Position numbers and translations under genes: made by a program. Shown here piece by piece: positions 20,877 to 58,956 of a DNA stretch of 64,000 nucleotides (its first letter is position 1; every line of letters begins with the position of its first letter). The notes under the pieces were generated by a model. The model saw nothing but the letters and a program-made list of their open reading frames with translations. It was not told the DNA's origin and did no database searches. The stretch spans positions 44,700 through 108,699 of the IMG/VR virus record IMGVR_UViG_3300029922_000029, one strand, 5' to 3'. The DNA is from a virus.

Positions 20877-21263
20877 TTACCGTGCGATACTGTTTCCGCT
20901 AATGTCTGGGCCTGTTGAGCGAGTCATCGTGTCGGGCCCGACCGGGGTAGGCGCAGAACCCTTGGCTGGAGTCAGAGGGGCCTTGTTGGTCTGCTTGGTC
21001 TTTTGGTAGGCCTTGATCTTCTGGGTTGCGAGGGCTGTGCCGCCGCCCAACAGACCACCACCTACCGCGCCCTTCAGAGCTCCGCCCAGGCCACCGCGAT
21101 TGCCTTGCTCGTCTCTCCCCATAGCTCCTGTTGCGCCGCCGGCGACCGCGCCTGCGATCGCGCCACCCCGAACCAGTGGATTCTTGATCACTTTCTTGGC
21201 TGCGCCCAAGATTTGATTTGTATTAAAAGCGGAGGTTTTGAGAAGACCGATGGAGAATGTCAT
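20877..21263 (-). CDS. FSxGLxKxA-leader glycine-zipper protein
   Basis: MTFSIGLLKTS leader; GAIAGAVAGGATG and GAVGGGLLGGG zippers. Confidence 0.7.
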   Translation of the reverse strand: MTFSIGLLKTSAFNTNQILGAAKKVIKNPLVRGGAIAGAVAGGATGAMGRDEQGNRGGLGGALKGAVGGGLLGGGTALATQKIKAYQKTKQTNKAPLTPAKGSAPTPVGPDTMTRSTGPDISGNSIAR

Positions 21264-21266
21264 CGA

Positions 21267-23270
21267 TTACACGTTAATCGTGATGTCGAGGTTGTTCAAT
21301 GGGATCGGAATTCCCAAAGTGTAGTTCTCCAGCACTGCGTCGATGTTGACCGGATCCTGCGCGATCGAATTCACGACGCCCGAGGTAATGACTCCGCCGA
21401 TCTTCGGAAGGATTGTCTTTTCCTTCAGGTACGTCAAGAGGCCCTGGGCATTGCCTTTGAGTTCGTCGATCGTGCCGGCCACAATGTTGTAATCACCGAT
21501 GTACTGCTTGTGGTTGGTGCGGATAAACTTCGCGATAAAGTCGACGTTCTTGGTGACCGAGAACTCCTGGAACTTAATCGCAGACGTATCCGTTGTCAGC
21601 TGCTGGCGGATATAGAGAGGAGTTTGGTTGATGACGTCCTGAACAAAGATCATCATGCCGCCCGAAGCCATCACGTTCAGCTGATCATTGCTGAAGTAAT
21701 CATTCGAGTGCAAGACGCCCGAGTAGGTCGCCACGGCCAGATTGGTGAAGCCCTGCTGAGTAGGAAGACCCGTCGTCAGCGCGCAGACTGAGGCATTCAG
21801 GAAGTAACCCGGGAGTTGCCGGATCGTGGATCCCACAGGGATTGAGACCACGTCAGGCCAGGTCAGAACAAGCCGGCGATCGCCCAGCGCGGAAGCGTAG
21901 GAAGCCATGGTGGCTGCCTGCTGATCCTTGGTCAGGTTCTCGTCGATGAAGTAAGTGACGCCAGTCGCGGCAAAGGTGGGAGCCGTAGCCGCAACCAAGG
22001 TGAGGTGCGTCTGCGAGTCGACCGACGCGATCGCGTAGCGACCAATGACGTTACTTGGGCTGGGTCCAACCACATTCAGGAACTCACCTGGGACAACGCC
22101 ATCCGTGATGAAGGAAGCTTCTGAGTCGGTGAACCAAATATCGGCGCTCCCAGAAGGCCCGGAGAGGCCATCGGATCCGGTCGTCAATGTTTCCTCAGTG
22201 ATCGCTTGGGTCGTGACGAGCTCACGATTGATGATACCGACGCGCTCGAGTTTCTGTTCAGGCACGGAGTAATCGTCCACATGCGTCTTGAGAAGAGTGT
22301 GGATAGCAGTGTTCTCGGTCAGCACACCAATCGCGTACACGTCGACCAAGGCCAGGACCTCGAGCGCCAGGCCGTAAGCAATGCCTTCGTCGCCGGTATT
22401 AGGGCCGTCACCGTTATCGAGGTAAGCCTGTGGGAGAGCGAGGATCTGGTTCTGTGCGACCGAGTTGTTGATCGCGAGGAGCGCCGCGAAGGCCAGCGTG
22501 TTCTCGGGCACCAGTTGATCGGTCCCGAAGTCAGCCTGGAGGCTTGCGAGAGCCGTCGCGCCCGCGTAACCCCTCATCGAGGCCGAGTAATCGAACCGCA
22601 GCGCGCGGTAGCTCAGCAACACGTTCGCACTCAAGATCGGAACCGTTCCGAAGACAGCATGAACGTAGGTGAGGCCGACCGGGAGGCCCACGCCGGCGTA
22701 AGCCACCGTGACACCGCTCGTCGAAGTCGAGAGCAGGATATTGCCGATTGTTGCCTGCAGGTTCCGCTGCATCGTGTAGCTGAGTCCGGTCTCATTGAGA
22801 GCCGCGAACTCTTCATTCAGTTGCAGGCTGTTGTTATTCAGCTTTGCGCGCACGATATACGTACCGTCATTGCCCATGGTGCTGCCCGTAACAATCAAGG
22901 AATCGCCGGGAAGGATATTGGCAAAGGCATTCGTCGTGGCATCATCAAAGGTCGTAATCGTGGTGGCGTCCGTGGCGCCCGTCCCTGTAGCTGTCAGGAT
23001 CTGAACCACGACCTGAGCAAGGGTGATCGTCACCGGATAGCTGGTGAGATCAGTGGGATCCAAGGGCCGGCAATCGATCTTGGTCCCCGCCTGCTGACCA
23101 CTGAACGTAAAGACGGCCGCACTCCCTGTGTAAGACCCCTCGTTCTCGAGGCTGATCACCTGAAAGGCCGGTCCGACCTGCACATTGGGCAGGCTGAACA
23201 AAGCCAATGCAGGAAGAGCATTGACGAAATTTTGAGTGACGGTGACTCCGGGTTGTCTAACGACGGCCAT
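21267..23270 (-). CDS. Tail sheath protein
   Basis: N-terminal 'RQPGVTVTQ'; C-terminal 'IRQQLTT...EFSV...VDFI...PIPLNNLDIT' sheath-like; 667 aa. Confidence 0.85.
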   Translation of the reverse strand: MAVVRQPGVTVTQNFVNALPALALFSLPNVQVGPAFQVISLENEGSYTGSAAVFTFSGQQAGTKIDCRPLDPTDLTSYPVTITLAQVVVQILTATGTGATDATTITTFDDATTNAFANILPGDSLIVTGSTMGNDGTYIVRAKLNNNSLQLNEEFAALNETGLSYTMQRNLQATIGNILLSTSTSGVTVAYAGVGLPVGLTYVHAVFGTVPILSANVLLSYRALRFDYSASMRGYAGATALASLQADFGTDQLVPENTLAFAALLAINNSVAQNQILALPQAYLDNGDGPNTGDEGIAYGLALEVLALVDVYAIGVLTENTAIHTLLKTHVDDYSVPEQKLERVGIINRELVTTQAITEETLTTGSDGLSGPSGSADIWFTDSEASFITDGVVPGEFLNVVGPSPSNVIGRYAIASVDSQTHLTLVAATAPTFAATGVTYFIDENLTKDQQAATMASYASALGDRRLVLTWPDVVSIPVGSTIRQLPGYFLNASVCALTTGLPTQQGFTNLAVATYSGVLHSNDYFSNDQLNVMASGGMMIFVQDVINQTPLYIRQQLTTDTSAIKFQEFSVTKNVDFIAKFIRTNHKQYIGDYNIVAGTIDELKGNAQGLLTYLKEKTILPKIGGVITSGVVNSIAQDPVNIDAVLENYTLGIPIPLNNLDITINV

Positions 23271-23288
23271 ACGTTTCGATCTCCTTGA

Positions 23289-23966
23289 TCATCCCGACTG
23301 AATGAGCCCACCTGGGTTCACGGTTAATTGTAACAAAAATTTCCTTAACCGAATAGGGTCAACCCACTCGGTCTTCCAGTTCTCAGTCACCTGGACGTTA
23401 ATCAGCACGGGTGTGACTGAAAGTCCAGGCCTCGCGCCCTTCTGAATCAGAGCTCGTTGCCCAACTTGGTTCACATGAATCGTCAGGAATCCGAACCGCT
23501 TGAGTGCGGGACCGAACATCTCCACGGCTCCCGACACGATCGCGGCCAGACCGTCGGCCTCAAGCTCCTCACTCGAGTAGCAGGAAATGCCGACTGATCC
23601 GTTCAGGATCCTGGCCCGGTGGGTACTGAGTCTACCGATCTGGGCACTCCCAATCCCGCCATTGATGCCGGCGAACTGATACCGGATGGGTCCGCGCGCC
23701 ACCACCAACTTTGGCCTCGTGTCCACTGTCTCCAGGTTGTCGGTCGACTGGCCTTCGATGGCTATCTCCGAGCTAACTGGGTCCCCGATCACGTACTTAT
23801 ACTGAGGCAGTTGATTATCGAGCTGCTCGGTCTCAGAGAAGCTGGCGATACCCGGGAAAGTAGAAAACAAGGCCTGCAGAAAGCCAAGCATCGCGTTCTC
23901 GATGAACCGTAAGGAGTTCTGGTACTGTTGATTGGGATTGACCAGATCCTGCGGACCGTTAGCCAT
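23289..23966 (-). CDS. Probable tail terminator/completion protein
   Basis: Immediately upstream of sheath; 'RP.LVV.RG' and 'ISCYS....EAD.LA' pattern. Confidence 0.55.
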   Translation of the reverse strand: MANGPQDLVNPNQQYQNSLRFIENAMLGFLQALFSTFPGIASFSETEQLDNQLPQYKYVIGDPVSSEIAIEGQSTDNLETVDTRPKLVVARGPIRYQFAGINGGIGSAQIGRLSTHRARILNGSVGISCYSSEELEADGLAAIVSGAVEMFGPALKRFGFLTIHVNQVGQRALIQKGARPGLSVTPVLINVQVTENWKTEWVDPIRLRKFLLQLTVNPGGLIQSG

Positions 23967-24606: not shown

Positions 24607-24831
24607 TCATCTGACTTTCATCCCGGGCCCCGGACTCACGGTATGCGAAATCGGCTTCATGGCCTTCCTGGCGTTCTGAGCGATCGGGTGACTCATCGTC
24701 GCGGTCTCGGGCTGTCCCGTGAGTGACTTCAGCCCCTGAACCGGATTACCCGGCTTGATGTCGGTCGTGATCCGCCTGGGTCTCGACATCGCGTTCATGC
24801 TGTTTTTTAGGCCCGTGGTGAAGGATCCCAT
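24607..24831 (-). CDS. Leader-bearing small basic protein
   Basis: MGSFTTGLKNS (weaker match to the leader). Confidence 0.6.
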   Translation of the reverse strand: MGSFTTGLKNSMNAMSRPRRITTDIKPGNPVQGLKSLTGQPETATMSHPIAQNARKAMKPISHTVSPGPGMKVR

Positions 24832-24832: not shown

Positions 24833-25027
24833 TCAGCACAGCGCCGTCACTTCGGAAGGATGGTCTGGATTCTTATTGAACAGCCATTTCATACAGCTCT
24901 CCGTTCGGTTCGAGGAGTCTTTGCCGGTTGCAGGGGAATTGTTGCCCTCAGAAATCTTCGAAGGTGCCTTGATCGGGGTGTTGTCGTGGTGCTTGGCGAT
25001 CTTCTGGAGGCCGCGGGAAAATTTCAT
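24833..25027 (-). CDS. Leader-bearing small protein
   Basis: MKFSRGLQKIA. Confidence 0.65.
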   Translation of the reverse strand: MKFSRGLQKIAKHHDNTPIKAPSKISEGNNSPATGKDSSNRTESCMKWLFNKNPDHPSEVTALC

Positions 25028-25803
25028 TTGTTACCCAGAAATTTCTTACGAGAGTAGTTGGTCGAACTATTCATTGGTAATTTCCACTGCTGGTCCATAT
25101 AGCGTGTGTGACTTCTCATATGGGGTGATAAGTCCACAATTTTTCCACCAATAAAATTAGCATGCCGCATATCATGCAATCCAGGATACTTGGCCTTTAA
25201 CTTCTCAAGATGCTGTTCGGTTTCTGGCGATAGTTTGGGCTGTGTCTGGAACATTGCCCTTACGCGACTTCTGTGCTTATCTGCGCGCACATATTTTCTG
25301 TGACTAGCCTCATCGAAATCAATACGATCGCCTTCTGCTGGCCAGCGTTTATTCTCTAGGTCTTCAAATGCTTTGTGCTTTTGCTTGTAGAGAGTGTCGA
25401 TTCTACTGTGCATTTCTTTTGCGTGAGGTTTGCTGTATTCATAGTAACTCACCGGCTTTCCAGCAACTCTAGATAGAAGGTGTGCAAAATCACCTTTCCC
25501 TCCAGTTATCTTTTTAGTGTGCTTCCAGAGGTCTACTCTTTCTTTTTCCGCAGAAAGAGAGTCCATAAGGTGCTTGGGGTGAGTTGAGTCTAAGATCGGT
25601 ATTTTTCTAACCGCTAAACCGTGCTGTGGATGAAGAACCAAGTCAGCAATCTGCTCGCCTCCATGCCCCAGTCGTTTCACTTCTTTTGGATTAGAAACCA
25701 GTCCTTTTAGGCGGTCAATAGCTGAAGGGCTAAGATTGCCTTTAGCGATCTCTTTGATGAAGCGTGAGGTGGAGATTTTCTCAATGCCCCGTGAAAAGGT
25801 CAC
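25024..25803 (-). CDS. Leader-bearing protein-kinase-like protein (GTG start at 25803)
   Basis: (M)TFSRGIEKIS leader; 'LGHGGEQIA' Gly loop, 'AVRK', 'LHDMRHANF...IVD'. Confidence 0.6.
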   Translation of the reverse strand: MTFSRGIEKISTSRFIKEIAKGNLSPSAIDRLKGLVSNPKEVKRLGHGGEQIADLVLHPQHGLAVRKIPILDSTHPKHLMDSLSAEKERVDLWKHTKKITGGKGDFAHLLSRVAGKPVSYYEYSKPHAKEMHSRIDTLYKQKHKAFEDLENKRWPAEGDRIDFDEASHRKYVRADKHRSRVRAMFQTQPKLSPETEQHLEKLKAKYPGLHDMRHANFIGGKIVDLSPHMRSHTRYMDQQWKLPMNSSTNYSRKKFLGNK

Positions 25804-26012
25804 CGGCTCAGTGTCCCTGCATCTTGCGGAGCCGCGGCACCGAAGCCTAAGCCTGACTTCAGATTTGACCAAGCCGAGCTCATGCTCGTACCGCCCGATA
25901 GTGCTCCGGCCTGCATCTGCCTGGCCTTGCGAGGGTCGATCATAGGAGAGCTTGGCGCATCGGCGATCTTACAAATGAGGAGTGCATTTTTCTTCAAACC
26001 CTTACTGAACAT
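25800..26012 (-). CDS. Leader-bearing small protein
   Basis: MFSKGLKKNA. Confidence 0.65.
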   Translation of the reverse strand: MFSKGLKKNALLICKIADAPSSPMIDPRKARQMQAGALSGGTSMSSAWSNLKSGLGFGAAAPQDAGTLSR

Positions 26013-26950: not shown

Positions 26951-27688
26951 TTAAGTGAGACCTCGGTAATGGAAAATTTGAGAAATCTTTTTTAAATAGG
27001 CGTCTTCTGAAGCTTCCATTTTAGAGGATTGGCAGGTAAAGCAGGCTGGAACAGAATTATCTAAAGTATAGTATGACTCATTATTTAAGCGATCTACAGA
27101 GTTGCACGGCACTATTTCGCCAGTGCAGTTATTCTTTCTGTTAGAGATGTCACCACAGTAATGGCAAGGTTTTGAGGTGAGATGAGTATATTCCTCCTCT
27201 GATAAGCAGCTTTTAATATTACGTTTATTTGCACCATTCAGATGGTGTAAATATGAGGCGTGTTTTACTGCGCGGCCATTAGGTTTTTTTTGAGAGGTAC
27301 TAATCATTTCTCCAGTTTTGCATCCGCAACTTTTTACATCACCCTTAACTGCATTTCTGGATTTTTTCTCCACTTCATTCCCACATATACACTTAAAGAG
27401 CCATATGAATACCCCTGGCTCTTTACTATTGCGGACAAACTTTAAAGCTGTAAGGTACCCATAAGTTCTCCCAGTAATGTCAGCTGGCTTTCCGGTCTTA
27501 TGGCAAGTGCGACGCTGCCCCATTCTCAATTTAGACTCTATGACCTGTATTGCTCCGCCGCAGTCGCAGTCGCAGTTCCATAACCTTTCGTGCCCTGGGA
27601 CTACAGAGACCGCCGTAAGTTGATGAAACTTGTCGCCTGACTTAATCAATGCAGGCCCGTATTGTCGTGGCATCTGGATTACCCCCAT
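26951..27688 (-). CDS. HNH homing endonuclease
   Basis: WxCxCxCG repeats, SCGC, 'PCHYCG...DRLNN...Y..DNSVPAC..CQ'; AT-rich. Confidence 0.8.
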   Translation of the reverse strand: MGVIQMPRQYGPALIKSGDKFHQLTAVSVVPGHERLWNCDCDCGGAIQVIESKLRMGQRRTCHKTGKPADITGRTYGYLTALKFVRNSKEPGVFIWLFKCICGNEVEKKSRNAVKGDVKSCGCKTGEMISTSQKKPNGRAVKHASYLHHLNGANKRNIKSCLSEEEYTHLTSKPCHYCGDISNRKNNCTGEIVPCNSVDRLNNESYYTLDNSVPACFTCQSSKMEASEDAYLKKISQIFHYRGLT

Positions 27689-29384: not shown

Positions 29385-30305
29385 TTAGAAGCTACCACCA
29401 CCCGGTATGGTCTGGGGAACCGCGAGCCGCAGCTTAGCCACGGAACGCAAATTGGCGATCCCCATACCAACGTATTCCCACGACTTCCAGAAGACCTTGT
29501 CGGCTTCTTTCTTGATCCAGAACTTGACGTCATTCAGGATGAAGAAGTTGCCCAAGAACTGTGGATCCGTGAAGGCGAAGATGTCACCGGGAGGCAAAAG
29601 ATCAGTCTTATTGGTGACTAACAAACGCCTCTTCATTATCTTGTCGGACGTCCACCCGTTGACGGTCATGTCAGACGCAAGGGGAGAGCCGACATCGGTT
29701 GCCTGCTGAGTCGTCCAGTCCGAGAAGTCCACGTTGGTCATGAGCAAGAGAGCCGACTGAAGAAGATCGCCGTCGATCATCTTGAACAGGCTGTTGAGCT
29801 GCGCGCGATTGACGATCGTGCCGGGAGAGTTGATGAACTTGCCCGAGTTGAACACGGCACCGTTGGCGGCAGCGAGACCAGTCGTGTCTTCGACACGCAT
29901 GATGTCTTTGATGCCGTTTTCTTCGATCACTTTCGTGATCTGGTACTCGTACGCCATCAACTCAGCTTCTTGCTTGCTGAAGAGATCGGTTTCGACCTTG
30001 AAGAACGGAACCGCGTAGCGAGTGCCTTGCAGGTAACGTTCGCGGCCGGCAGAACGGAAATTGACTGCCGCAGCCGTCGAGGGATGCTCGAAGTCCACGA
30101 TCTTCACCATCGTGTCGTGCTTGGTGGAGCGAGTCAGATCCGTCCGGACGACGGTTTCGGTGGGGAGCACTTTGCGGAAGAAAGAGTTCTCACGCAAGTA
30201 GCTCCGGATAAAGGCCTGGCCCACCATCGCGGTCTTCTGCTGACCATCTTGGGTGTCCATGCGCTCGACGAACAGGTTGTTAAAACTTACGGCTTCTTCG
30301 TTCAC
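29385..30305 (-). CDS. Major capsid protein (HK97 fold, probable)
   Basis: 306 aa; GAGGAGG SD; follows protease-scaffold-decoration genes; 'LRENSFFRKVLP' N-terminal and 'EYVGMGIAN' C-terminal patterns; strong terminator after. Confidence 0.75.
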   Translation of the reverse strand: MNEEAVSFNNLFVERMDTQDGQQKTAMVGQAFIRSYLRENSFFRKVLPTETVVRTDLTRSTKHDTMVKIVDFEHPSTAAAVNFRSAGRERYLQGTRYAVPFFKVETDLFSKQEAELMAYEYQITKVIEENGIKDIMRVEDTTGLAAANGAVFNSGKFINSPGTIVNRAQLNSLFKMIDGDLLQSALLLMTNVDFSDWTTQQATDVGSPLASDMTVNGWTSDKIMKRRLLVTNKTDLLPPGDIFAFTDPQFLGNFFILNDVKFWIKKEADKVFWKSWEYVGMGIANLRSVAKLRLAVPQTIPGGGSF

Positions 30306-31135: not shown

Positions 31136-31519
31136 TTAACGAGTGTCGACCTCACCATACAGTACCCAGCGCTCCATCTGGTTCAGCTTGCGGCCAGAAG
31201 AGTTGGAATCAGAATCATCCAGAGTGCCTGAATTGATGCCGACCGAACTTCCTCCGCCTCCCGCTGAATATCCGCGTTGGAGCGCTTTTTCTACTACCTG
31301 GAGGTCATCCTCTGTCATCAGAGACGCCACCTTGTTGAGAAACTCTTCATGGGTGCGAAAGGGCTCGGAAAAACCAAGCTCAATTTCGCGGAAAGCAACC
31401 TTCATCGCACGCTTCTCGAGGTCGTTATGAGCTGCGACCTTTTCGAGTTCCAGTCTGCGCGTATGCTCTTGTTTAAGAAGCTGGCCTGCTTTCTTGACCA
31501 GCTCGGGATCGTAACCCAT
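31136..31519 (-). CDS. Scaffold-like protein with KxA motifs
   Basis: Coiled coil; EKVAA, EKRAM, NKVAS; C-terminal hydrophobic helix. Confidence 0.55.
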   Translation of the reverse strand: MGYDPELVKKAGQLLKQEHTRRLELEKVAAHNDLEKRAMKVAFREIELGFSEPFRTHEEFLNKVASLMTEDDLQVVEKALQRGYSAGGGGSSVGINSGTLDDSDSNSSGRKLNQMERWVLYGEVDTR

Positions 31520-32020
31520 TTACTCTCCGATCGTACGAGATGCGGGTTGGCTGGGAGAAGCCATGCTGCGCTCGCCGCTCGGAATGGGTTTGCCATTCTT
31601 TCCGGCGTTGACGTCATCGCCCTTAGCAGAAGCCATGGCCGCACCGACTGCCACAAAATCAACGAGGCGTTTTTTTAAACGACCCGCAGCGACTTTCTCC
31701 AGGGCCTCATCGACATGGGCATTCATGTGGCCCTGTTCGTAAGCCGCTTCCTGGAACCTAAACATCCGATCGAGTTCATCGAGCTGCGTATCGGCATGGA
31801 TCTGATTCATCACGACCGCTATTTTCTCGAATTCGTCGAGGCCGGTAAGGGAATCGTTTCCGGCGCACTTCTCGATCTGGGAGACGACAGCGTTGACTTC
31901 GGAAGAAGAGGAAGGGGCCCCAGAGACAGCCGCAGGAACAACTGGAGAGGCGGTTTTAATCACTTTCTCCAAGTCATTTAGGCGGTCCGCGTCTGCGAGT
32001 AGGTCTTTGAGTGGTCTCAT
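31520..32020 (-). CDS. Head core protein with KxA motifs
   Basis: KTAS, EKCAG, EKIAV, EKVAA. Confidence 0.55.
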   Translation of the reverse strand: MRPLKDLLADADRLNDLEKVIKTASPVVPAAVSGAPSSSSEVNAVVSQIEKCAGNDSLTGLDEFEKIAVVMNQIHADTQLDELDRMFRFQEAAYEQGHMNAHVDEALEKVAAGRLKKRLVDFVAVGAAMASAKGDDVNAGKNGKPIPSGERSMASPSQPASRTIGE

Positions 32021-32059
32021 AGATTCCTCAAGAGTGGTGTGTTCTGAGGCCCCGATTCC

Positions 32060-32953
32060 TTAATCTTCCTTGTGACCCATCAAGCGGTGAGCGAGAGCAG
32101 CACCGCCGGCACCCGCTGCGGCGCCAGTGCCCGCACCGTAGTAGGCTTTATGCTTGCCGACATGGCCGCGAGCCTTGTCGTAAGCGCCACCCAAGTGCTT
32201 CTTGAGTTTAGCCATGTGGCCCATCGCTGCGCCGGCTTTAGTCCCGCGTGCCGCGATCTTCTCGATGCCGTCACCGATCAGGTTCTCGACGGATTCCTGC
32301 ATCCGGACTTCGTCCGCGAGCTCGGCAACCGTGCACTCAGAGGCTTTCTTGTCGTGGCCGCTCTTGTGACGGAGAGCCATGTGAGCTCCGAGAGCTCCGA
32401 CACCGGCACCTGCGATCAAGGCCGCTTTGCCCTTGTGCTTCTTGCCGTACTTCATAGCTTCATGGCCATGACCCTTGGCGGCTTCGTAAGCCTTACCGAG
32501 GCGAGCCTTGGTCTTGTCAAGGAAGCCCTTGGCCTTCTTGATTTTCTTGGCGTCGGCAGTCTTAACTGCGTCTTCAGCCAGCTTTTCGATCTGGTTGATG
32601 TAGCCTTCCAGCATCGCGGCACCGCAGACCTGAGCGATCTTCTGGAGTTCGACGGGGTCCGAGTTTTCGACGACACCCGAAGCCGCCTGAGCTTCGTCCA
32701 TGGCCTTCAGAATTTCTTCTTCGGCACCATCGAATTCAGCCGAAGCTTCTTTCGAAAGGGGTTCTTCGTCATCGGCTTCCGCGAATTCGCGGTCCGCACA
32801 ATAAGCGCCGTACGCGTAGATGCTTTCGACCAGATCGTTGCCAGCAAGGCTGGCTTCAGCCTGCTTGACGAGCTCGGGGTCGAACTCCTTCGCCAGAAGC
32901 GCCTGGAGTTGTTCTTCGTTCATACCCTGCAAAGCCTGTTCAATCTCGTTCAT
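32060..32953 (-). CDS. Head core polyprotein-like protein: acidic segments alternating with basic glycine-zipper segments
   Basis: KQAE, KEAS, KIAQ, KLAE, KTAD, KKAS, KIAA; two KH-rich GAG repeats. Confidence 0.6.
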   Translation of the reverse strand: MNEIEQALQGMNEEQLQALLAKEFDPELVKQAEASLAGNDLVESIYAYGAYCADREFAEADDEEPLSKEASAEFDGAEEEILKAMDEAQAASGVVENSDPVELQKIAQVCGAAMLEGYINQIEKLAEDAVKTADAKKIKKAKGFLDKTKARLGKAYEAAKGHGHEAMKYGKKHKGKAALIAGAGVGALGAHMALRHKSGHDKKASECTVAELADEVRMQESVENLIGDGIEKIAARGTKAGAAMGHMAKLKKHLGGAYDKARGHVGKHKAYYGAGTGAAAGAGGAALAHRLMGHKED

Positions 32954-33017
32954 TTTTGAGTCTCCTGAGGTTTTTGTTTCCGGTCGTTGTGATCCGAAAC
33001 GAATGGGTTAAGGCCGA

Positions 33018-33746
33018 TTAGGTCTGGTGATAAGCTCCGACATCGCCAGCCTGCGCCTTGATCTTGCGCTTCAGCATTGCCTGAGCGGTGACTTCGGGAA
33101 TGTCCATGCGCTTGGCCGTGCTGCCGTTGGTTTCGACCTTGCCGCCACCGGTCGCCTTGTGGTTGACCGTGATGGCTGGATCTTGGCCGTTACCGACGAT
33201 CGCGGCGAGTTGGCCGCTGTTGGAGAGACCGGCCATGGGCTTCGAACCTTCTTCAGCGCCGCCAGCGGAGTCGCCTGCGATCTTGTCGAGGTAGCAGGTC
33301 TGGCCTGCGTTGAAGTAGTGAGCCACGCACTCGCCGAAGAGCTGAGCGGGGGTGGCGTCTTCGTCGTTGCCTTCGACAACACCGCCGACCACTTCGGTCA
33401 GGCTCGCGACTTTGGTCTGCCCACCGACCGCAGCGGTCAGGGAACCCGCAGCAGCGGGATCAGCAGCCGCGGCGCCAGCCGTCTTATCGAGACCTTCGGT
33501 TCCAAAAACTTCCTCGTACATCGAAGTGAAATCACTCATTGCGGATCCTCTTTCTTGGGTGGCGGCCGATGCAGTTTTCGTCTGCTCGGTGGCCTGGGTT
33601 GCGGGGGTTTGGGCGAGTCCCAGGCTCTCGATCACCTGGTCGACTTCACTTTTGCCACCAGCCGCGGGAGCAGCTGATGCAGTCTTGGTTTGCGATTTGT
33701 CATCCATTCCGAAATCAGACAGCATTTGTTCGAGAGTACGTGACAT
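33018..33746 (-). CDS. Low-complexity head core/scaffold protein with KxA motifs
   Basis: TKTASA x2, DKTAG, TKVAS, DKIAG. Confidence 0.6.
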   Translation of the reverse strand: MSRTLEQMLSDFGMDDKSQTKTASAAPAAGGKSEVDQVIESLGLAQTPATQATEQTKTASAATQERGSAMSDFTSMYEEVFGTEGLDKTAGAAAADPAAAGSLTAAVGGQTKVASLTEVVGGVVEGNDEDATPAQLFGECVAHYFNAGQTCYLDKIAGDSAGGAEEGSKPMAGLSNSGQLAAIVGNGQDPAITVNHKATGGGKVETNGSTAKRMDIPEVTAQAMLKRKIKAQAGDVGAYHQT

Positions 33747-33759: not shown

Positions 33760-35643
33760 CTAAAGAGCCAATTGAGTCATTGCCTGCAGGAGCAAGAGCT
33801 CCTGCGCAGGTAGCCGGTTCGTCATAGGAAGTTGATTTGGATTGAGTTCGCCCGTGCCCATGACGGAAGCAGCCTTCTCGAGAAGGCTCGAGACTTCAGC
33901 TACATCGCTGGGTGTTTGTGTGAGGAGGCTTCTGGCGAGCAGAGAGACAGGAAGCCGGTCACCGAGCGTCTCAGGGGTCTGCCCGGGTTCAGAAAGATAA
34001 ATCAGTCCAGACACCCCTTCGAGGGGATGATGGCCTAACTTAGGGAACCAGGAGAGAGCTTCCAAATCGACGACGGAACCGGTTTTGATAACCGCAACGG
34101 GACGTGCTTGTAAATCTACAAAACGTCTCCGCCAGTCTTGAGTATACAAGTCTTGGCTGCCCCCCGCAAGGTCGTATTGCCCGCTGACTAAAGGCTTCGC
34201 ATTGGAAGACGCCAGGGTCTTGGCCGCAGCGGCGATGGGGAGGCCGGCGAGAAGCAAGGGAATGGGGTGATTCAAGAAGAGATCCCGGAGTTTCTCGGGG
34301 ACAAACATGGCAGCCAGAGCTACGAGTAAGCCCTGCTTGATGCCTTGCTCAAAGGTACCGGGCTGCTTCTTGTGCCTAGACTCTTCAGCAGCCCTCTTCA
34401 CCATCTTGGGATCCAGCTGCCGAAGCCTGATCATCAGGACGGGAGGGCTAAAAGAACGCTCGGGGATGAAAGGTGCGAGTGCGTCACAGCACTCCGGGCT
34501 GACGCGGTGAAGACCTTCAGCCTTCTTGCCCGTGAAGATCTCGCCGATCGTGCGCGCCTCGTCGGGGGTCGGCGCGATCGCAAGAGTCACGAGGGATGAA
34601 AGGAGCTCGGGGAGGCTGGAGCTCTTCGCAACGGATTCGAAGGTCTGGCGCGGGATAGGCTTCGCCGAGCGGTCGAGGGCCAGCTTGATGGCCGCACTCA
34701 GAGCCGTGACCTTTTTCGCCGCCTGGGCCGGGACTTCGGACAGTCCGGGGCGGGGAACCACAGAAACACCCGGGATCTGCTTCTTGATGAAGGCTTTCTT
34801 GGCGACAGCGGCCTGTTTGATGCCGCGTTTCATACCGTAGGCTTGCTCGAGTTCTGATGCCACCTTATCCAAGTAGACTGGATCGCCGACCGCTCCAGGC
34901 GGCAGCTCAGCAAGGTGAGCCGAGCCCAAGCGGGAAGGCGCGGCAGCACTCGCAATCTTCTCCCACATGTAAGCCGTCTTGTCGGCTGGGATCAGGACGC
35001 GGGAGATATCGAAGAATTTCGGATGGGGGTTCCGCGCAAAGACCGCCTTGCCAGTATCTGGATCGATCTGCCGCAAAAGGTACCTGAGGTGATCGCAATA
35101 CTCAGCGCGTGTCTTGGCTTTATTCAGGCAGATATTGCAGACGTCATAAGGCAGTTTTGCGCCCATCGAGGTCGTGATGGGTTCACCACGGTCGACCATC
35201 GCGGCGCCCTCGGGGTCGCGAGCTGGATCGATCCCGATGACGAGCTCCACGCGCTTGGCGTTCTCATTCCAAACAGCGAGGATCACCTTCCCTTTGGCTA
35301 GGGCTGGGTTTTGATTGACGTGATGGGTAAAGTAATTCGCGTTAGTCTTGAAGGTGTCGACCCCGTAATCGGGCCCGCGGTGGGAGAGTGGCTCTTCACC
35401 GAACCAATCCGCATTGATATTGTCACCCCAATATTCACCCGCTCCGAGTGCCGTGATGAGCGCCTGAACCAATCCCTCCATGGGCTTGGCCTGCTCGATA
35501 TACTTCTGGACTTGTGGGTGGTAGGCAAACTTGCGGTTCGCGCTGGCGGCCTGCTTGAGAAGGTAGCGACGATCCTCTGTAAGCAGGAACACGTCCCGCT
35601 CTTTACGGCTCAGGTTTTGAGGGTAGAGGAGGAGCTTATCCAT
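33760..35643 (-). CDS. Prohead maturation protease (assemblin/HK97-type) with long C-terminal extension
   Basis: 'FTHH', 'TSMG', Zn-knuckle CxxC...CxH, 'FFDISRV..PAD'; upstream of scaffold and MCP. Confidence 0.75.
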   Translation of the reverse strand: MDKLLLYPQNLSRKERDVFLLTEDRRYLLKQAASANRKFAYHPQVQKYIEQAKPMEGLVQALITALGAGEYWGDNINADWFGEEPLSHRGPDYGVDTFKTNANYFTHHVNQNPALAKGKVILAVWNENAKRVELVIGIDPARDPEGAAMVDRGEPITTSMGAKLPYDVCNICLNKAKTRAEYCDHLRYLLRQIDPDTGKAVFARNPHPKFFDISRVLIPADKTAYMWEKIASAAAPSRLGSAHLAELPPGAVGDPVYLDKVASELEQAYGMKRGIKQAAVAKKAFIKKQIPGVSVVPRPGLSEVPAQAAKKVTALSAAIKLALDRSAKPIPRQTFESVAKSSSLPELLSSLVTLAIAPTPDEARTIGEIFTGKKAEGLHRVSPECCDALAPFIPERSFSPPVLMIRLRQLDPKMVKRAAEESRHKKQPGTFEQGIKQGLLVALAAMFVPEKLRDLFLNHPIPLLLAGLPIAAAAKTLASSNAKPLVSGQYDLAGGSQDLYTQDWRRRFVDLQARPVAVIKTGSVVDLEALSWFPKLGHHPLEGVSGLIYLSEPGQTPETLGDRLPVSLLARSLLTQTPSDVAEVSSLLEKAASVMGTGELNPNQLPMTNRLPAQELLLLQAMTQLAL

Positions 35644-35914: not shown

Positions 35915-37189
35915 TTAAGTCTTCTTCTCGGGCTCGCCCTGACCGCCCTTGCCCTGACCGCCCTTGCCCTTACCGCCAATACCCATAGGGAAGTGCAGCG
36001 TTTCCATCACGCCCTTCATTCCGCCCATGAACCCTTTATTGCCGCTGACCGAGCGGTCGACGGCCGAGTTGGCTTCCGCCAGTCCCTTGATGGTGTCGGG
36101 CGCGATCCGGCCGAACGCCTGGACTTGCTGCTCGAGGAAAGAACGGAGAACCGGAGGGCGCGCGGCGAGGGCTGGTGCGACCATGCAGATCGTATCGAAG
36201 GCTTCACGCGCGGCCTGAGGATCTTGCTTCAGGGTATCGTTCGTCCGCATCAACTGGCTGAATTGATTCTGTGCCTCATTTTTGAGGTGTGCGTCTTGCG
36301 AGCGATCGTACACAAGCTTCACGAGGCCTAATCCGCCCCCGAGTGCGAGAGCGGGAGCGATGTATGCGAGATGGTCAGCCAAACCCTTTGCGCCCTTCCC
36401 AAGCATATCCTTCATGCCGGAACCGAAACCACCCTTCGCCGCGGCCGTTTTCATCATGTGAACGCGATCGCTCACCATGCGGCCCAGGCAGGCTTCCGAG
36501 ACGTAGAGCGGGAACTCAACCGAGCTCTGCTTAGTCTGGTTCTTCGCTTGTGCCTTGCCTCTGGCATGAGCATAGAGTTCCTCAGGGCTCATGTTTCTGT
36601 AAACACTGGGATCAGAGATCTCGGAAACCAGCGTGGATTTCAAAAGTTTTCCGGCATCGGCGACTTCCTGATCAATAGATTGAAACTTTTTCTCAGTGCG
36701 CCTGAATGTTTCCATCCCGAAGATATTCAGGGATTTCTCGAGAGCACCCAGAATCGCCGCGCGGGCTCCGGCGCTTGCAGTTTGAGGGCGACCCGCCGTT
36801 CCCATCCGAGAGGCTTCGATCACGGAGAGCTTGTGGACATCATCGAGGCTGAAGCCGGTATCAAGCCGTTCGGTCAAGAGCTTGTGCGCCATCTGGGGGT
36901 TCTTCGCAACAGTCGGAGCCACCACGGAGAGCTCGCCAAAGAGAGCGGCGAATTTCTGGGGATCCTGCTTGAATTGCGGGTTCTTTCCAAAAGTGGCATG
37001 AAGACTGTCGGCCAGATCTTTCTTATGGTTCTCGGTAGCGCTGCGTCCGCTCATATAACCGTAGAGGCCCGCGGCACCCGCGATCCCGGTGACCCCGAGA
37101 AGTGGAAAGAGCATAGCCTTCATCTTTTTGGCGGTGGCCGGGGTCAGCATCGACTCGGCTTTTGCGGCTTCTTTTACGACTGTGCTCAT
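35915..37189 (-). CDS. Virion internal protein with duplicated TM+helical module
   Basis: Two copies of hydrophobic helix + 'L/FKQDPQ...F......AP.(V/L)A..P'; KEAA, KQSS, KTAA. Confidence 0.6.
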   Translation of the reverse strand: MSTVVKEAAKAESMLTPATAKKMKAMLFPLLGVTGIAGAAGLYGYMSGRSATENHKKDLADSLHATFGKNPQFKQDPQKFAALFGELSVVAPTVAKNPQMAHKLLTERLDTGFSLDDVHKLSVIEASRMGTAGRPQTASAGARAAILGALEKSLNIFGMETFRRTEKKFQSIDQEVADAGKLLKSTLVSEISDPSVYRNMSPEELYAHARGKAQAKNQTKQSSVEFPLYVSEACLGRMVSDRVHMMKTAAAKGGFGSGMKDMLGKGAKGLADHLAYIAPALALGGGLGLVKLVYDRSQDAHLKNEAQNQFSQLMRTNDTLKQDPQAAREAFDTICMVAPALAARPPVLRSFLEQQVQAFGRIAPDTIKGLAEANSAVDRSVSGNKGFMGGMKGVMETLHFPMGIGGKGKGGQGKGGQGEPEKKT

Positions 37190-37371
37190 GTTGGCCCCCG
37201 AGGCGTTTGCATGCTGGTCACACGCTTCATGTTCTGGCTAAACTGGTTGCTGGCGTCGGCGGCCGTCAGAACTGCGTTCAGCTTCCCACCGGCCAGATTG
37301 GTGATGGCTTTGGCTGCAGAGCCGATGATTCCGGCTGTCTTCTTGAGACCGTCACTGAACTTAGAGCCCAC
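37186..37371 (-). CDS. Leader-bearing small protein
   Basis: MGSKFSDGLKKTA. Confidence 0.7.
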   Translation of the reverse strand: MGSKFSDGLKKTAGIIGSAAKAITNLAGGKLNAVLTAADASNQFSQNMKRVTSMQTPRGPT

Positions 37372-38245
37372 GGATCTTTTCCTTCAACTGAGGAAGAGTG
37401 GCATCCACAATCCCGCGGTGGGTGCGGAGATGCTCTTCCTCGTCCCATTTCCCGCCTAAGGTATTGATGGTGATGTAGAGTGCGTGGTTGCCATTCACGA
37501 TCTTGGCCGGGATGTCGTAGTTGATTAGGCTTTCTGGTGCCTGCTGCTCGGCGAATTTATAGAGGCCCTGGACCGTCAGGACATGGGCGATCTTTGCGAT
37601 GAGGAGCGCGGTCTTGTTCTTGCGCTTCGGATCGCTCACGGCCGAACGTACAAACTCAGCGATCTTCTTGAGGCCCTCGCCGCGGTCGGTGAAAGGCATC
37701 TCAATCAGCATCTGACGGGCTTCTTTGATGAACTTGATCTCGAGAGCTTCGATCTGAGAAGTGATCTCGATCTGCTTGTCGCTCAGGCGTTCGGAGGCCG
37801 CGGCTGTCTTTTCAAGACGGTTCGTGAGTTCGTGCTTAAGTAGTCGCTTGTCAGACGCCAGCTTCTGGTGGCCATTCGTGGGCAGAAAGGCGGTCCAGGT
37901 GTCGGAGGCCTGCTTCTTCATGGCCCTTGAGCCTTCGGGGGGCGCCATGTAGTCTTCTGAGGCCTGCTTGCAGAGGACAGGAGCCACGGCCTGGAGTTCA
38001 CCTACGACTTCGTCTGGGTTGACGGGGACGAAAGAGTAAGAGGCTTTCTTATCCAAATCGTAGAGCCCCTTCCAAACAATACCATTAGCCTCTCCAGTGA
38101 GGACAGGTATTTGCACCGGAGCAAGGCGCTCAGATGAGGCAACCTTCTTTAGCTCTGCCTTGAGGGTACTCTTCCCACCCGAGGTTAGAAAAGCCTCAGC
38201 AGCCCGTTTAGACAGAAGCTTCAGGGTCTCTCTCGTCTTATGCAT
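37361..38245 (-). CDS. Head-associated protein with many KxA motifs
   Basis: KVAS, KKAS, KQAS x2, KLAS, KTAA, KIAE, KIAH. Confidence 0.6.
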   Translation of the reverse strand: MHKTRETLKLLSKRAAEAFLTSGGKSTLKAELKKVASSERLAPVQIPVLTGEANGIVWKGLYDLDKKASYSFVPVNPDEVVGELQAVAPVLCKQASEDYMAPPEGSRAMKKQASDTWTAFLPTNGHQKLASDKRLLKHELTNRLEKTAAASERLSDKQIEITSQIEALEIKFIKEARQMLIEMPFTDRGEGLKKIAEFVRSAVSDPKRKNKTALLIAKIAHVLTVQGLYKFAEQQAPESLINYDIPAKIVNGNHALYITINTLGGKWDEEEHLRTHRGIVDATLPQLKEKIRGL

Positions 38246-38584
38246 CTAGGTTCCTTCATGGCGGTGACCGCCGCGTCCCGGAGTCGACTTAAGGTTAAGC
38301 TCCCCAGCCATTCTATAAACTTTGTTTGCTTGATATTTACGGATGATCTTGCCAGCTTCATGCCCAGCGACGCCGCCAGAGGCTGCGCCGAGACCTGCGC
38401 CGATCAGCCCCACTTTGGATTTGTTGCCGTGCTTTCCCCTGAGTAAACCAATAGCTGCGCCAGCCCCTGCGCCCCCTATAGCACCCTTATATTTATCGCC
38501 GGCACCCACATGCTCATAAAACTCGGTCGGAGTCATGGTAACGACTGTGACTGCGATCTTCTTTAGGCCCGTGGAAAACAGCAT
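38246..38584 (-). CDS. Leader-bearing glycine-zipper protein
   Basis: MLFSTGLKKIA; GAIGGAGAGAAIG / GAGLGAASGG. Confidence 0.7.
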   Translation of the reverse strand: MLFSTGLKKIAVTVVTMTPTEFYEHVGAGDKYKGAIGGAGAGAAIGLLRGKHGNKSKVGLIGAGLGAASGGVAGHEAGKIIRKYQANKVYRMAGELNLKSTPGRGGHRHEGT

Positions 38585-42822: not shown

Positions 42823-42871
42823 TTAGATCTCCCAGTGTTTTTTAGCTCCGACCCATGGTACACTTGACCCC

Positions 42872-43090
42872 ATGAGCTTCTCCCTAGGACTCCATAAGGT
42901 CTCGGCAGCCAAGATGGGTCTCCGCGGCGTCATTGCCGCCACCGAAAAAGCACCGGCCAAGGCAATGTCGGGGATCGCGCAGAACAGCCTCAAGGCCATG
43001 CCCAAGCGCCCCAACATCATGGACATCAAAGACCTGCCTGCGGCCGCACCCAAGAAGAAGGGCTTTCTGGGTGGGATGTTTGGGTTCTAA
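42872..43090 (+). CDS. Leader-bearing small basic protein (orphan location)
   Basis: MSFSLGLHKVS; TACACT 7 nt upstream of ATG. Confidence 0.65.
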   Translation: MSFSLGLHKVSAAKMGLRGVIAATEKAPAKAMSGIAQNSLKAMPKRPNIMDIKDLPAAAPKKKGFLGGMFGF

Positions 43091-52088: not shown

Positions 52089-53286
52089 TCCTAGCCTCAC
52101 GGAGACTCAATCTAAAATCCAGTGCAGAACTTAACCAGAGCTTAAACTCTTCAACGGATCTATCGCTTTTTATGATGTTGCAGTATCTGCAGCAAGAGCA
52201 TACATTACCAACCACATATCCTAGATCACTGTTGATTCTGTCAATTCCACTATAAACGATCTCTCTTCTTTTATTTATATGCCTATTCCCATCGTTAGCT
52301 TTTGCGAATGGTGGATTTTTACAGTAGGTGCAATTTCCAGCCAATAAAGACTTGAAGTAATCAAAATCTAAATCAAAATTAATGTCCTTCTTCCTTTTCT
52401 TGGCCATGATTCTATAAGTGCTAAAAATATGTCTTTCTATGACTGGTACAGAGATATACTCACTTTTTGGGATAACGCCAGACTCTCTTATGTCTAGGGA
52501 CGCCTCCATCCACCTTAAGTAGTCCGCTACAGGATGCTCTCTTTTCGCCCTATTACAGGCTTTACAGCAAGTGACCACATTGCCAGTCGTATAGCTTCCG
52601 TTACTTTCCACCCTGTCTAATCCGTTGTAACTAACCTTATGTGTATATAGCTCTCTCTTAACTAATACTGTCGCCGCGGGGGGGCAGTTGCAGTAATTGC
52701 AATTCATCCCTATCAACTCAAGGAATTTCTCGTATCCAATCTCAAAAAGGAGTCCTCGTTCTTTCGCGTGCCAGATATAGGAGCCATAAAGACCCTTCTC
52801 AATAGTTTGTGGACTGCGAATTTTTTTAGCTCTTTCTACATTTGCACAACCACAACTAGTGGTATGCCCATCTCTGATGCTTGCAAGTCGCGTCTCAATC
52901 TCGCCTGAGCATCCTGCAACTTTGCCATCACAATCACACTTAGCTAGAATAACTGCTCTACCTCGATATGAGCCTGTAATTCTTACTACGGTAAGGCGAT
53001 TGAACTTTTGCCCAGATGGGTCTGATCCATTCCATCTGTTTGTTTTACTTGGACCACGGTAGTCTTTTGCGTAACAGTCTCTACACATCTCCTTGCAAGA
53101 GACATCCTTCAGGCATCCTAATGTCTTGCATGGACGAATTACTTTTTTAAGCTTTTTAGAAACACCTGGATCTCCATACTTTTGAAATGCACGCATATGA
53201 CTGCGACACATTTTATGTGTCCTATTTTCCCACGGTTTTCCACAGGAATTATAGATGCAAGACGTACCTAAGAAGATGGTTGGCAT
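52072..53286 (-). CDS. HNH endonuclease with two tandem HNH domains
   Basis: 'CNYC...NGLDRVES...Y...NVVTCC..CN' and 'CTYC...GIDRINS..GY...NVCSCC..CN'; N-terminal Cys/His fingers; AT-rich. Confidence 0.85.
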   Translation of the reverse strand: MPTIFLGTSCIYNSCGKPWENRTHKMCRSHMRAFQKYGDPGVSKKLKKVIRPCKTLGCLKDVSCKEMCRDCYAKDYRGPSKTNRWNGSDPSGQKFNRLTVVRITGSYRGRAVILAKCDCDGKVAGCSGEIETRLASIRDGHTTSCGCANVERAKKIRSPQTIEKGLYGSYIWHAKERGLLFEIGYEKFLELIGMNCNYCNCPPAATVLVKRELYTHKVSYNGLDRVESNGSYTTGNVVTCCKACNRAKREHPVADYLRWMEASLDIRESGVIPKSEYISVPVIERHIFSTYRIMAKKRKKDINFDLDFDYFKSLLAGNCTYCKNPPFAKANDGNRHINKRREIVYSGIDRINSDLGYVVGNVCSCCRYCNIIKSDRSVEEFKLWLSSALDFRLSLREARNVRTA

Positions 53287-56010: not shown

Positions 56011-56155
56011 AAACAGACCAATTGTCAAGTGACTCGTGGCGTTGTTAGGTGGGAATAGTTGAGTATGACGCGAAGTTGACTAAGGATTGTTAAGAAGATC
56101 GGGTATGAGAGCTCGTATAATCGAGGAGAGGACAAAGCCCAATTCAACTAAAAGA

Positions 56156-57307: not shown

Positions 57308-57411
57308 CTTCTAAAGAATCTCATCTGTGCGGCGCGTTAGCAAGCTTGAATCAGGCGACTATAGGGGGTTCCATAAAAGTATGGAGGCTGCTCACTTTAT
57401 TTTTACGTCTC

Positions 57412-58133
57412 ACCCGCGTTCGTTTTTTAGCTTACAGTTTTAGGCGCATAGGATAAGTCAGTAGGTATGGGTGAATGTTTTGAGTGCGGAGAGCCGGCCG
57501 AGCACAGACATCATGTGGTTCCAAAGTCGTTAGGTGGAACTAAGATGGTCCCTCTTTGCCTGAACTGTCACGGCAAAGTGCACAATGGTATTAATTTATT
57601 TACGCTTAGAAAAAAGGGCTTAGCTAAAAAAATAGCCGAAGGATGGAAGCCAGGACCAGAGCATACTTTTCGTATGGGTGACGAAAAAGAAACCGTATTG
57701 AGAGAACTTTATTTTAAGGGTGTGACACTAAGGGAGATTGCAGAGAACTTTGGCGTCTCCGAAGGTACGATTGAGCGTTTCACAAGAGAAAATAGAAGCG
57801 TCTATAAACCCAGAAGAAAAGATATACGCGAAATTGAAAGACTAGCTATTCCGTTGCTAACTGGAGGACAGCCAAAAGAAAGAGTTGCAGCGGAAATAGG
57901 TGTAAGTGTGACAACCATACTGAGGATAGCAAGAAGGAATGATATTGCTGGAAGGAGGCACAGAAAATTCAGTGCCGAAGATATGGCCACACTCGATAAA
58001 TTTTTAAGCGACGGAAAGCCTTTAGCCCATATTGCAAAATTAATGGATCGAGCTGAGACAGTCATTCATCGCCACAAGTGGAAGAGCCCATCTTATTTGG
58101 TAAATAAGGAATGACCCGCGTTCGTTTTTTAGC
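57412..58133. mobile_element. HNH cassette bounded by 20-bp perfect direct repeats
   Basis: ACCCGCGTTCGTTTTTTAGC at 57412-31 and 58114-33. Confidence 0.7.
57467..58114 (+). CDS. HNH endonuclease with three C-terminal HTH motifs
   Basis: 'CFECG....HRHHVVPKSLGG....PLCLNCHGKVH'; 'LREIAENFGVS', 'VAAEIGVS', 'LAHIAKLM'. Confidence 0.85.
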   Translation: MGECFECGEPAEHRHHVVPKSLGGTKMVPLCLNCHGKVHNGINLFTLRKKGLAKKIAEGWKPGPEHTFRMGDEKETVLRELYFKGVTLREIAENFGVSEGTIERFTRENRSVYKPRRKDIREIERLAIPLLTGGQPKERVAAEIGVSVTTILRIARRNDIAGRRHRKFSAEDMATLDKFLSDGKPLAHIAKLMDRAETVIHRHKWKSPSYLVNKE

Positions 58134-58136
58134 CCC

Positions 58137-58427
58137 TCACTTCTTCTTCCGATCGTAAGCATGATGCTCGTACATATGAGCGTAAAGCTTCTCGTTGTGG
58201 ATCCCGCTGGTGTGCTCGACCTCAGCAACGCTGTTGATGAAGGGTTCGGCGAGATCGCCGTATTCGGCTTGCGTGATCTGGCCGGCCAAGCTTTTCTTCC
58301 GGGCCTCTTCTGCTTTTTTGAAGGCAGGCAGTATCTTCTTTACGTGCTCGTCTGTGATCTTGGGCTCGGGCTTTTTCTTACCGAAGCCGAAGAAGGCAGT
58401 TTTGATGAGGCCGTGAGAGAGACTCAT
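58137..58427 (-). CDS. Leader-bearing small protein
   Basis: MSLSHGLIKTA. Confidence 0.7.
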   Translation of the reverse strand: MSLSHGLIKTAFFGFGKKKPEPKITDEHVKKILPAFKKAEEARKKSLAGQITQAEYGDLAEPFINSVAEVEHTSGIHNEKLYAHMYEHHAYDRKKK

Positions 58428-58615
58428 TCGGGTTTTTTCTTCCGGTTCGCGCCGTAAGCCGTACCTAAAGACCCCGCGGCCGCGGCGCCCATCAAGTAGT
58501 CTTTTCTGTGTTTGCTAAGATGTTTGCCGACAGCTTTACCGGCAGTTCTCGACTTGATGAAGGCCCTGTCGAGGCGAGTGTTGGCGGTTTTTTGGAGGGC
58601 GGTGGAGAAAGTCAT
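58424..58615 (-). CDS. Leader-bearing basic peptide with Gly/Ala helix
   Basis: MTFSTALQKTA. Confidence 0.7.
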   Translation of the reverse strand: MTFSTALQKTANTRLDRAFIKSRTAGKAVGKHLSKHRKDYLMGAAAAGSLGTAYGANRKKKPE

Positions 58616-58956
58616 TTTTTCTCTTCGTGTTTGTATTTGTGGCCCAAACGCTTGGCAATATGATAACCAGCATGACCACCGGCAACTACGCCAACTGGCA
58701 CAGTAGAAAGTAAAGCGATAGCGGCTGCTTTTCTTTTGGCTCCGTGAAGACGTGTCATACGTTCTTTGAGCAGCGTAATTGCTCCGGCTCCAGCTGCACC
58801 ACCAATATTCGCACCCAGGTGCGCAGCCCCACCCCGAAGCGCCCCAATTCCACGGTTAACAATGTGTCCGTGCTCATCTTTTTCACCGCCGGCAGCAGCT
58901 CCTATGAGGGCGCCGGTGACGAATGCCCGCTTCTGAAGTCCATCTGAAAAACTCAT
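58612..58956 (-). CDS. Leader-bearing glycine-zipper protein
   Basis: MSFSDGLQKRA; GALIGAAAG, GGAAGAG. Confidence 0.7.
   Translation of the reverse strand: MSFSDGLQKRAFVTGALIGAAAGGEKDEHGHIVNRGIGALRGGAAHLGANIGGAAGAGAITLLKERMTRLHGAKRKAAAIALLSTVPVGVVAGGHAGYHIAKRLGHKYKHEEKK

Follow-up and report, generated by a model that had tools for sequence, protein, structure and literature searches.

Why do eleven otherwise unrelated proteins of one phage begin with nearly the same nine residues? The question is raised by the right-hand 64 kb (hereafter the window) of a 108.7-kb phage contig in IMG/VR (IMGVR_UViG_3300029922_000029; estimated contig completeness 70%). A first-pass annotation of the window had described this shared N-terminal leader as an address tag ending in a protease site, by analogy with the capsid targeting sequence (CTS) of phage T4 internal proteins. 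The reading that we favour, with a probability of about 0.58, is that the leader is a CTS-like N-terminal propeptide: the protein carrying it would be loaded into the head and then clipped after Ala by a protease of the gp21 fold. The two parts of this reading are not equally strong. From the sequence comparisons described below, cleavage of the leader by the prohead protease appears quite probable, and loading of the protein by the leader itself an even bet.

The leader and the proteins that carry it

All eleven N-termini were recovered where the first-pass annotation had placed them. Ten of them fit the strict pattern [FL][ST].[GA][LI].K.[AS]; the copy at 24831 (MGSFTTGLKNS) is a decayed leader that fails it, having lost a residue between L and K. 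The tagged genes of the window are the following.

20877..21263, minus strand: 128 aa, leader MTFSIGLLKTS, Gly/Ala-rich body; the homologue in relatives begins MSFKGGFNKQA
24607..24831, minus strand: 74 aa, degenerate leader MGSFTTGL-KNS, one residue missing
24833..25027, minus strand: 64 aa, leader MKFSRGLQKIA, strict pattern
25024..25803, minus strand: 259 aa, GTG start, leader (M)TFSRGIEKIS, strict pattern, unconfirmed kinase-like motifs
25800..26012, minus strand: 70 aa, leader MFSKGLKKNA, strict pattern
37186..37371, minus strand: 61 aa, GTG start, leader (M)GSKFSDGLKKTA, strict pattern
38246..38584, minus strand: 112 aa, leader MLFSTGLKKIA, strict pattern, Gly-zipper-like body
42872..43090, plus strand (opposite to the others): stand-alone gene, 72 aa, leader MSFSLGLHKVS, downstream of the DNA polymerase gene
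58137..58427, minus strand: 96 aa, leader MSLSHGLIKTA, strict pattern, basic body
58424..58615, minus strand: 63 aa, leader MTFSTALQKTA, strict pattern
58612..58956, minus strand: 114 aa, leader MSFSDGLQKRA, strict pattern, Gly/Ala-rich body

The six-frame translation of the whole 108.7-kb contig exhibits 11 matches to the strict pattern, 10 of them inside the window; the eleventh, MMNFSSGLKKSA at contig position 14271 (+), lies beyond it. From base composition 0.52 matches would be expected; in 200 shuffled versions the mean was 0.42, and no shuffle exceeded 3. All 11 matches stand directly behind an in-frame start codon (GTG instead of ATG for the tagged genes at 25803 and 37371), a start codon being found at most 4 codons upstream at 17% of six-frame positions (P ~3e-9). 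A chance origin of the leader was rejected on these figures. An RNA-level signal was also rejected: the conserved residues are encoded by differing codons in different copies (Ser by TCC/AGT/TCA, Gly by GGC/GGT/GGA, Leu by TTA/CTT/CTC/TTG/CTA), and this synonymous variation indicates that the peptide, rather than its RNA, is conserved and under selection. None of the papers searched mentions these motif strings.

The bodies that follow the leader fall into separate clusters at E<1e-4, in agreement with the description of the proteins as unrelated, except that three Gly-rich bodies share a low-complexity likeness. Those of the window comprise small Gly/Ala-rich proteins, small basic proteins and one protein of 259 aa. 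None of the small proteins reaches the cut-off of a Pfam or PHROG family; the label "glycine zipper" finds weak support, the Pfam Gly-zipper models matching the 38584 body below their cut-offs only. In 9 orthologues of this last protein the sole invariant residues of the leader are F3, G6, K9 and A11. The body at 24831 gives short partial tblastn matches (E 2e-4 to 2e-7) to a tagged family of the relatives, which suggests that it belongs to that family.

The label "kinase-like domain", given to the 259-aa protein (25024-25803), could not be confirmed. The resemblance is at the level of motifs alone (LGHGGE, VRK, HDMRHAN, IVD). This protein exhibits no Pfam match at E<=0.01, no PHROG and no PDB sequence or profile match; its AlphaFold2 (AF2) model is unusable (predicted local distance difference test, pLDDT, 43.7), and a weak Atlas lead to PF18762 stands at rank 25. 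A word-based homologue search retrieved 2 relatives only. In this family the conserved body starts right behind K-x-A (slash): GFLKEA/APRWIK, YLEKLA/SPRWIK and, here, GIEKIS/TSRFIK.

Neighbouring genes overlap by 4 nt at 58953/58956, 58612/58615, 58424/58427, 25800/25803 and 25024/25027, which bears out the translational coupling in runs, among the tagged genes and with a conserved core gene. The statement that ten of the eleven genes lie in virion operons holds for the seven within the head/tail module; for the three behind the core gene (58953-61088) it depends on that gene, whose virion role is suggested. The position of the 37186..37371 gene between two head genes is conserved throughout the lineage. 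The promoter-like motif GCAA-N16-GGYATARG was not found upstream of the tagged genes. The two stand-alone tagged genes exhibit a TGn-extended -10-like box 4-7 nt before the ATG (TGGTACACT, TGGTAAAAT; window 42840-42872 (+), contig 14240-14271 (+)), and a terminator-like hairpin precedes the 42872 gene. These two genes may produce leaderless transcripts from promoters of their own.

With the capsid protein, 44 related IMG/VR loci were fetched (41-76% identity), many of them from 150-182 kb contigs, and together with the present contig (~720 kb in all) they were scanned with a relaxed pattern and with a reversed-pattern control. Orthologues of the tagged genes exhibit a variant leader, M(x0-3)-F-x-x-G-[F/L]-x-K-x-A. 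The relaxed pattern gave 286 matches, 171 of them at most 6 codons from a start, against 96 and 15 for the reversed pattern; of the N-terminal matches in related loci, 152/156 are on the strand of the capsid gene. The 140 unique leaders have the consensus F-[W/S]-x-G-F-E-K-[R/T/Q]-A. Among the leader-specific positions, the F three residues before G is conserved best (117/140), and no residue dominates at positions 10-15, so that the likeness does end after K-x-[AS], as had been noticed in the window.

With the leader stripped off, the 168 tagged proteins, 39-862 residues long, form 87 clusters. Five complete genomes contain 11-21 copies of the coding pattern each, on one strand, against 0 for the reversed control, and these copies are often tightly clustered, far from the capsid gene. 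The leader also exhibits dialects: F-S-x-G-L in this contig (10/11 strict copies), F-x-x-G-F in its closest relatives and F-W-x-G-F-E-K-R-A in a distant branch. That unrelated proteins of one genome share a dialect points to one shared receptor per phage. The idea that the leader marks cargo is strengthened by the relatives, in which it is carried by SNF2-family helicases (474-862 residues, best Pfam E 2e-21) and by a NUDIX hydrolase (Pfam E 5e-18). Many further proteins with no named family also bear it, as does a weak candidate for a ligase-OB protein that does not reach the Pfam cut-off. A megablast search of the head region against the phage collection gave no match.

The prohead protease and its candidate sites

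The genes for the protease and for the other proteins that bear the motif of the leader end are the following.

33760..35643, minus strand: prohead protease, 627 aa, gp21/assemblin-fold core at about residues 40-222 in the model, long C-terminal extension
29385..30305, minus strand: major capsid protein, 306 aa, PHROG 2522 (HK97-type profile match)
31136..33746, minus strand: four acidic scaffold-like head proteins of 127, 166, 297 and 242 aa with conserved K-x-A sites
35915..37189, minus strand: head-module protein, 424 aa, beginning MSTVVKEA, an early hydrophobic-x-K-x-A site (lineage alignment)
37361..38245, minus strand: head-module protein, 294 aa; 5 of its 10 hydrophobic-x-K-x-A sites are conserved (lineage alignment)
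58953..61088, minus strand: conserved core gene, 711 aa, starting with MAILKHA ahead of the native N-terminus of its relatives

The ORF at 33760-35643 had been called a protease, and structural comparison agrees. By sequence it exhibits a weak PHROG head-protease match (PHROG 18299) and no Pfam or PDB sequence match; its more than 180 homologues are all unnamed. In an AF2 model built from 39 sequences, the core (residues 40-222) reaches a pLDDT of ~90-97. Foldseek returned weak rows only; the clear match came from an exhaustive structural aligner. Among 48,161 PDB representatives the best is T4 gp21 (5jbl_A, Z 10.4, root-mean-square deviation 3.1 A, 138 residues), followed by the assemblins of varicella-zoster virus (VZV; Z 7.9) and human cytomegalovirus (HCMV; Z 6.1), with further rows dropping to 4.6. 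H108 and S159 are invariant in the 39 sequences and H107 nearly so, with a His-to-Ser spacing of ~50 residues, and we infer from this conservation that H107/H108 and S159 are the catalytic residues. With its modelled fold and its conserved Ser and His, the ORF is a predicted prohead serine protease of the gp21/HK97/assemblin fold. An invariant CxxC...C cluster just behind the serine (residues 169-183) may be a metal-binding insertion.

The leader motif recurs on both sides of this core. L28-x-K30-x-A32 (YLxKxA[SG]) and K229-x-A231 (MWxKVASA) are invariant or nearly so in the protease alignment, and both lie in disordered segments (residues 1-34 and 224-237, pLDDT <50), a layout that would be expected of self-release sites. 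The capsid protein exhibits a conserved G-x-x-K-T-A site at residues 20-26, which closes a conserved N-terminal segment of 26 residues; its K-x-A column (residues 24-26) is 97% conserved in 36 sequences, with a conserved Gly ahead (D-G-[L/I/Q]-x-K-T-A). In lineage alignments the four scaffold-like proteins and the two flanking head proteins contain 2-6 conserved K-x-A sites each. The head module of this contig, 2,238 residues in all, contains 35 copies of hydrophobic-x-K-x-A. This corresponds to 1.56 per 100 aa, while the remaining predicted proteins have 0.15 per 100 aa (Poisson P 2e-23); for the reversed motif no enrichment is seen. The bodies of the tagged proteins in the window are at background density (a single site in ~800 residues), which implies that they would be trimmed of the leader and not degraded; the scaffold-like proteins, in contrast, would be fragmented. 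Most internal sites lack the leader-specific F, and several head proteins bear short N-terminal sites without it.

The 711-aa protein is a particular case. It begins MAILKHA/AGVENLF, and its homologues begin M-[S/A]-G-L-E-N-L-F, so that cleavage behind the Ala would restore the native start of the protein. The extension may be viewed as a mini-leader of 7 residues with the cut motif at its end. A small tagged gene stands behind the homologue of this gene in 2/5 complete relatives, and in a third a K-to-R variant is found there. The 711-aa gene has no PHROG, phage-collection, Atlas or PDB-profile match; its product weakly matches gp218, a structural protein of Arash, and is possibly portal-like.

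Two cultured phages, Salmonella phage Arash and Vibrio phage D69, are distant relatives whose capsid proteins are 27% identical to that of this contig (records L053, Arash 144-151 kb, and L054, D69 150-159 kb). The protease homologue of Arash (gp222, 38% identity) has GGLTKQA at residue 30 and VLEKVA at 218; in the D69 protease the two sites are GLEKSA (residue 27) and VLQKVA (residue 214). At residue 27 the capsid proteins of both phages have DQGL[V/T]KEA, followed by GAAM. The protease and capsid sites are at positions equivalent to those of this contig, and the scaffold-like head proteins of the two phages contain 6-11 hydrophobic-x-K-x-A sites each. Their small proteins lack an N-terminal leader, the exception being one D69 head protein that starts MHMTPEGLKKMA. 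The two phages thus have the sites and not the leader, so that of these two elements the cut motif is the more ancient and the more widespread. The leader resembles a copy of this motif transferred to the start of accessory proteins, with F-x-x added. Altogether, the claim that the leader ends in a K-x-A protease site finds good comparative support in the sites that flank the protease core, end the N-terminal segment of the capsid protein, fill the scaffold-like proteins and recur in Arash and D69.

Signs of mobile elements were also observed. Several protease homologues are 1025-1081 aa long (P0037, P0098, P0109, P0114, P0116, P0118; L030:3536-6613), and most of them contain the intein/homing-endonuclease domains PF14528 and PF13403; the protease gene is thus an intein host in this lineage. 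In the window, HNH endonuclease ORFs are found inside the virion module (26951-27688, minus strand) and upstream of and overlapping the large terminase gene (52072-53286, minus strand; terminase 50349-52100). They are probably homing endonucleases.

Address, processing site or both

The favoured reading combines these observations in the following way. Proteins with the leader would be made alongside the head proteins and enter the assembling prohead. The last six residues of the leader, G-[L/F]-x-K-x-A, would be a full recognition site of the phage's own prohead serine protease, and the conserved F three residues before G would mark the leader form. Once activated, the protease would free itself from its precursor, take 26 residues off the N-terminus of the capsid protein, break up the scaffold-like proteins at many sites and trim the leader, probably after its Ala, leaving an intact body inside the capsid. 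The bodies would then leave the capsid with the DNA at infection. Herpesvirus assemblin cuts between Ala and Ser. By this analogy the cut at G-hydrophobic-x-K-x-A is placed after the Ala, where the conserved bodies also begin and where the MAILKHA extension would be removed. Candidate readers of the leader-specific F are the groove of the latent protease, its C-terminal extension and the scaffold-like proteins. A complex prediction with the protease core (residues 36-228) and the first 40 residues of the 38584 family gave no answer (score 0.03), and speaks neither for nor against binding.

Several points weigh against this picture. Cleavage, the presence of the tagged proteins inside the prohead at that moment and their departure with the DNA are steps that we infer, and the leader-bearing lineage is uncultured throughout. 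Because most internal sites lack the leader-specific F, the address may be read by something other than the protease. The tagged genes at 42872 (+) and contig 14271 (+) sit outside the virion modules. Finally, the virion proteome of Arash gives 100% sequence coverage for some of the head proteins that bear sites (PMC10585845). The same virion preparation also contained many non-virion proteins, and the paper with its supplements holds no processing analysis, cleavage data or peptide list (PMC10585845).

The explanation that comes closest to the favoured one, although we consider it unlikely, keeps the cut and drops the address: the leader would be a processing site only, its removal maturing or activating proteins that are brought into the prohead by their bodies or by bulk capture. 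The identity of the last six leader residues with the internal cleavage-type sites speaks for it. The kinase-like homologue with a minimal Y-L-E-K-L-A lacking F-x-x-G and the head proteins with short N-terminal sites lacking F are also in its favour. Against it stands the F of 117/140 unique leaders, which most internal sites do not have. Moreover, the fixed position of the motif (residues 2-6) on 87 unrelated bodies and its genome-wide dialects suggest selection beyond the scissile bond, and the equivalent peptide of T4 is the address (PMC3012670).

Far less probable is an uncleaved peptide that binds the shell or the scaffold, as in encapsulins, the repeats of the scaffold-like proteins then being a shell-binding motif and not cut sites. 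The HK97-type profile match of the shell protein (PHROG 2522) and the many repeats of the motif in the scaffold-like proteins would suit such a peptide, and the leader presumably bears a loose resemblance to encapsulin peptides of the G-S-L-K type. Sites in linkers flanking a protease core and at the end of a capsid N-terminal segment are, in contrast, typical of processing, and MAILKHA at the start of the 711-aa protein can be understood only if it is cleaved off. A signal with no relation to the capsid, whether for membrane or export, for a host protease (compare Staphylococcus Prp and the L27-like leaders of phage 80alpha) or for translation at the mRNA level, would accommodate the membrane-active look of several Gly/Ala-rich bodies and the two tagged genes outside the virion modules, and is about equally improbable: synonymous codon variation excludes the RNA level, the leader is short and polar, unlike a signal peptide, soluble enzymes also carry it, and the motif is shared with the protease flanks, the capsid protein and the scaffold-like proteins and is enriched only in the head module.

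The CTS-like propeptide thus remains the preferred explanation, and a bolder version of it may tentatively be put forward, with less confidence than we have in loading by the leader. The nine residues F-x-x-G-[L/F]-x-K-x-A may be a self-contained and portable capsid-loading address, read by a gp21-fold protease with a herpesvirus-like requirement for Ala at P1 or by its scaffold-linked precursor, that loads and injects a fast-changing set of ~12-25 proteins per genome, among them SNF2, NUDIX and kinase-like enzymes and membrane-active Gly-zipper peptides. The "programmable delivery tag" of the first-pass annotation is an extrapolation from T4. If correct, this version would provide a second protein-packaging tag, independent of that of T4 and open to engineering. 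The leader would also serve as a simple sequence rule that lists the proteins probably injected, which are likely to include anti-defence and takeover factors.

Comparison with known systems

The cargo-loading peptides of encapsulins are likewise short terminal peptides on unrelated cargo destined for an HK97-fold shell. They differ in being usually C-terminal, in binding the shell directly and in not being removed. In the giant phages phiKZ and SPN3US a single prohead protease (gp175 and gp245, respectively) acts at a short motif on numerous proteins of the head and scaffold and on ejected proteins, as proposed here. The motif is there (S/A/G)-x-E, and the propeptides are long and variable in contrast to the fixed N-terminal tag of 9 residues in the present lineage. 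The distant relative Arash resembles these phages in encoding multisubunit RNA-polymerase beta-type subunits (L053:1-3951, 8722-10542).

Herpesvirus assemblins, which cleave (V/L)-x-A sites before Ser, share with the present protease the fold (Z 7.9 for VZV, 6.1 for HCMV), the predicted cut after Ala and before a small residue (S/A/G), and the predicted self-release, through the enzyme's own sites, from a longer precursor linked to the scaffold. Here the enzyme is from a phage, and in its site the Ala would be preceded, at two residues, by an invariant Lys and, further upstream, by a Gly-hydrophobic pair. If confirmed, Gly-hydrophobic-x-Lys-x-Ala, cut after Ala, would be a new specificity within the gp21/assemblin fold, resembling the Ala preference of the herpesviruses.

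The closest parallel is the CTS of T4, whose role in the internal proteins has been reviewed (PMC3012670). It is carried by IPI-III and Alt and removed by gp21. Both systems exhibit a peptide of about 10 residues at the extreme N-terminus of unrelated proteins, ending in a prohead protease motif, and the protease fold is common to both (Z 10.4). The cargo is in both cases diverse, clustered and variable between relatives, and enzymes with a clip-off tag among the virion genes recall T4 Alt and the internal proteins. The differences lie first in the sequence: F-x-x-G-[LF]-x-K-x-A exhibits no likeness to the MKTYQEFIAE of T4 with its L/I-x-E end, and the cut would probably follow Ala (P1), with Lys at P3, and not Glu. 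The protease is made here as a 627-aa precursor with a long C-terminal extension, and the small capsid protein (306 aa) bears a 26-residue N-terminal segment. There are 11-21 tagged genes per genome, known from sequence alone, as opposed to a handful in T4. The shared N-terminal peptide, the encoded gp21-type protease and a leader that ends in the protease motif would together place this system in the CTS-type class, and the analogy drawn by the first-pass annotation fits. The leader would therefore work like a CTS while standing outside the CTS sequence family of T4. The principle is not new, T4 having set the precedent; if the favoured reading is correct, the same strategy of an address tag plus a protease clip would operate with a wholly different sequence in a separate, widespread lineage of uncultured large phages.

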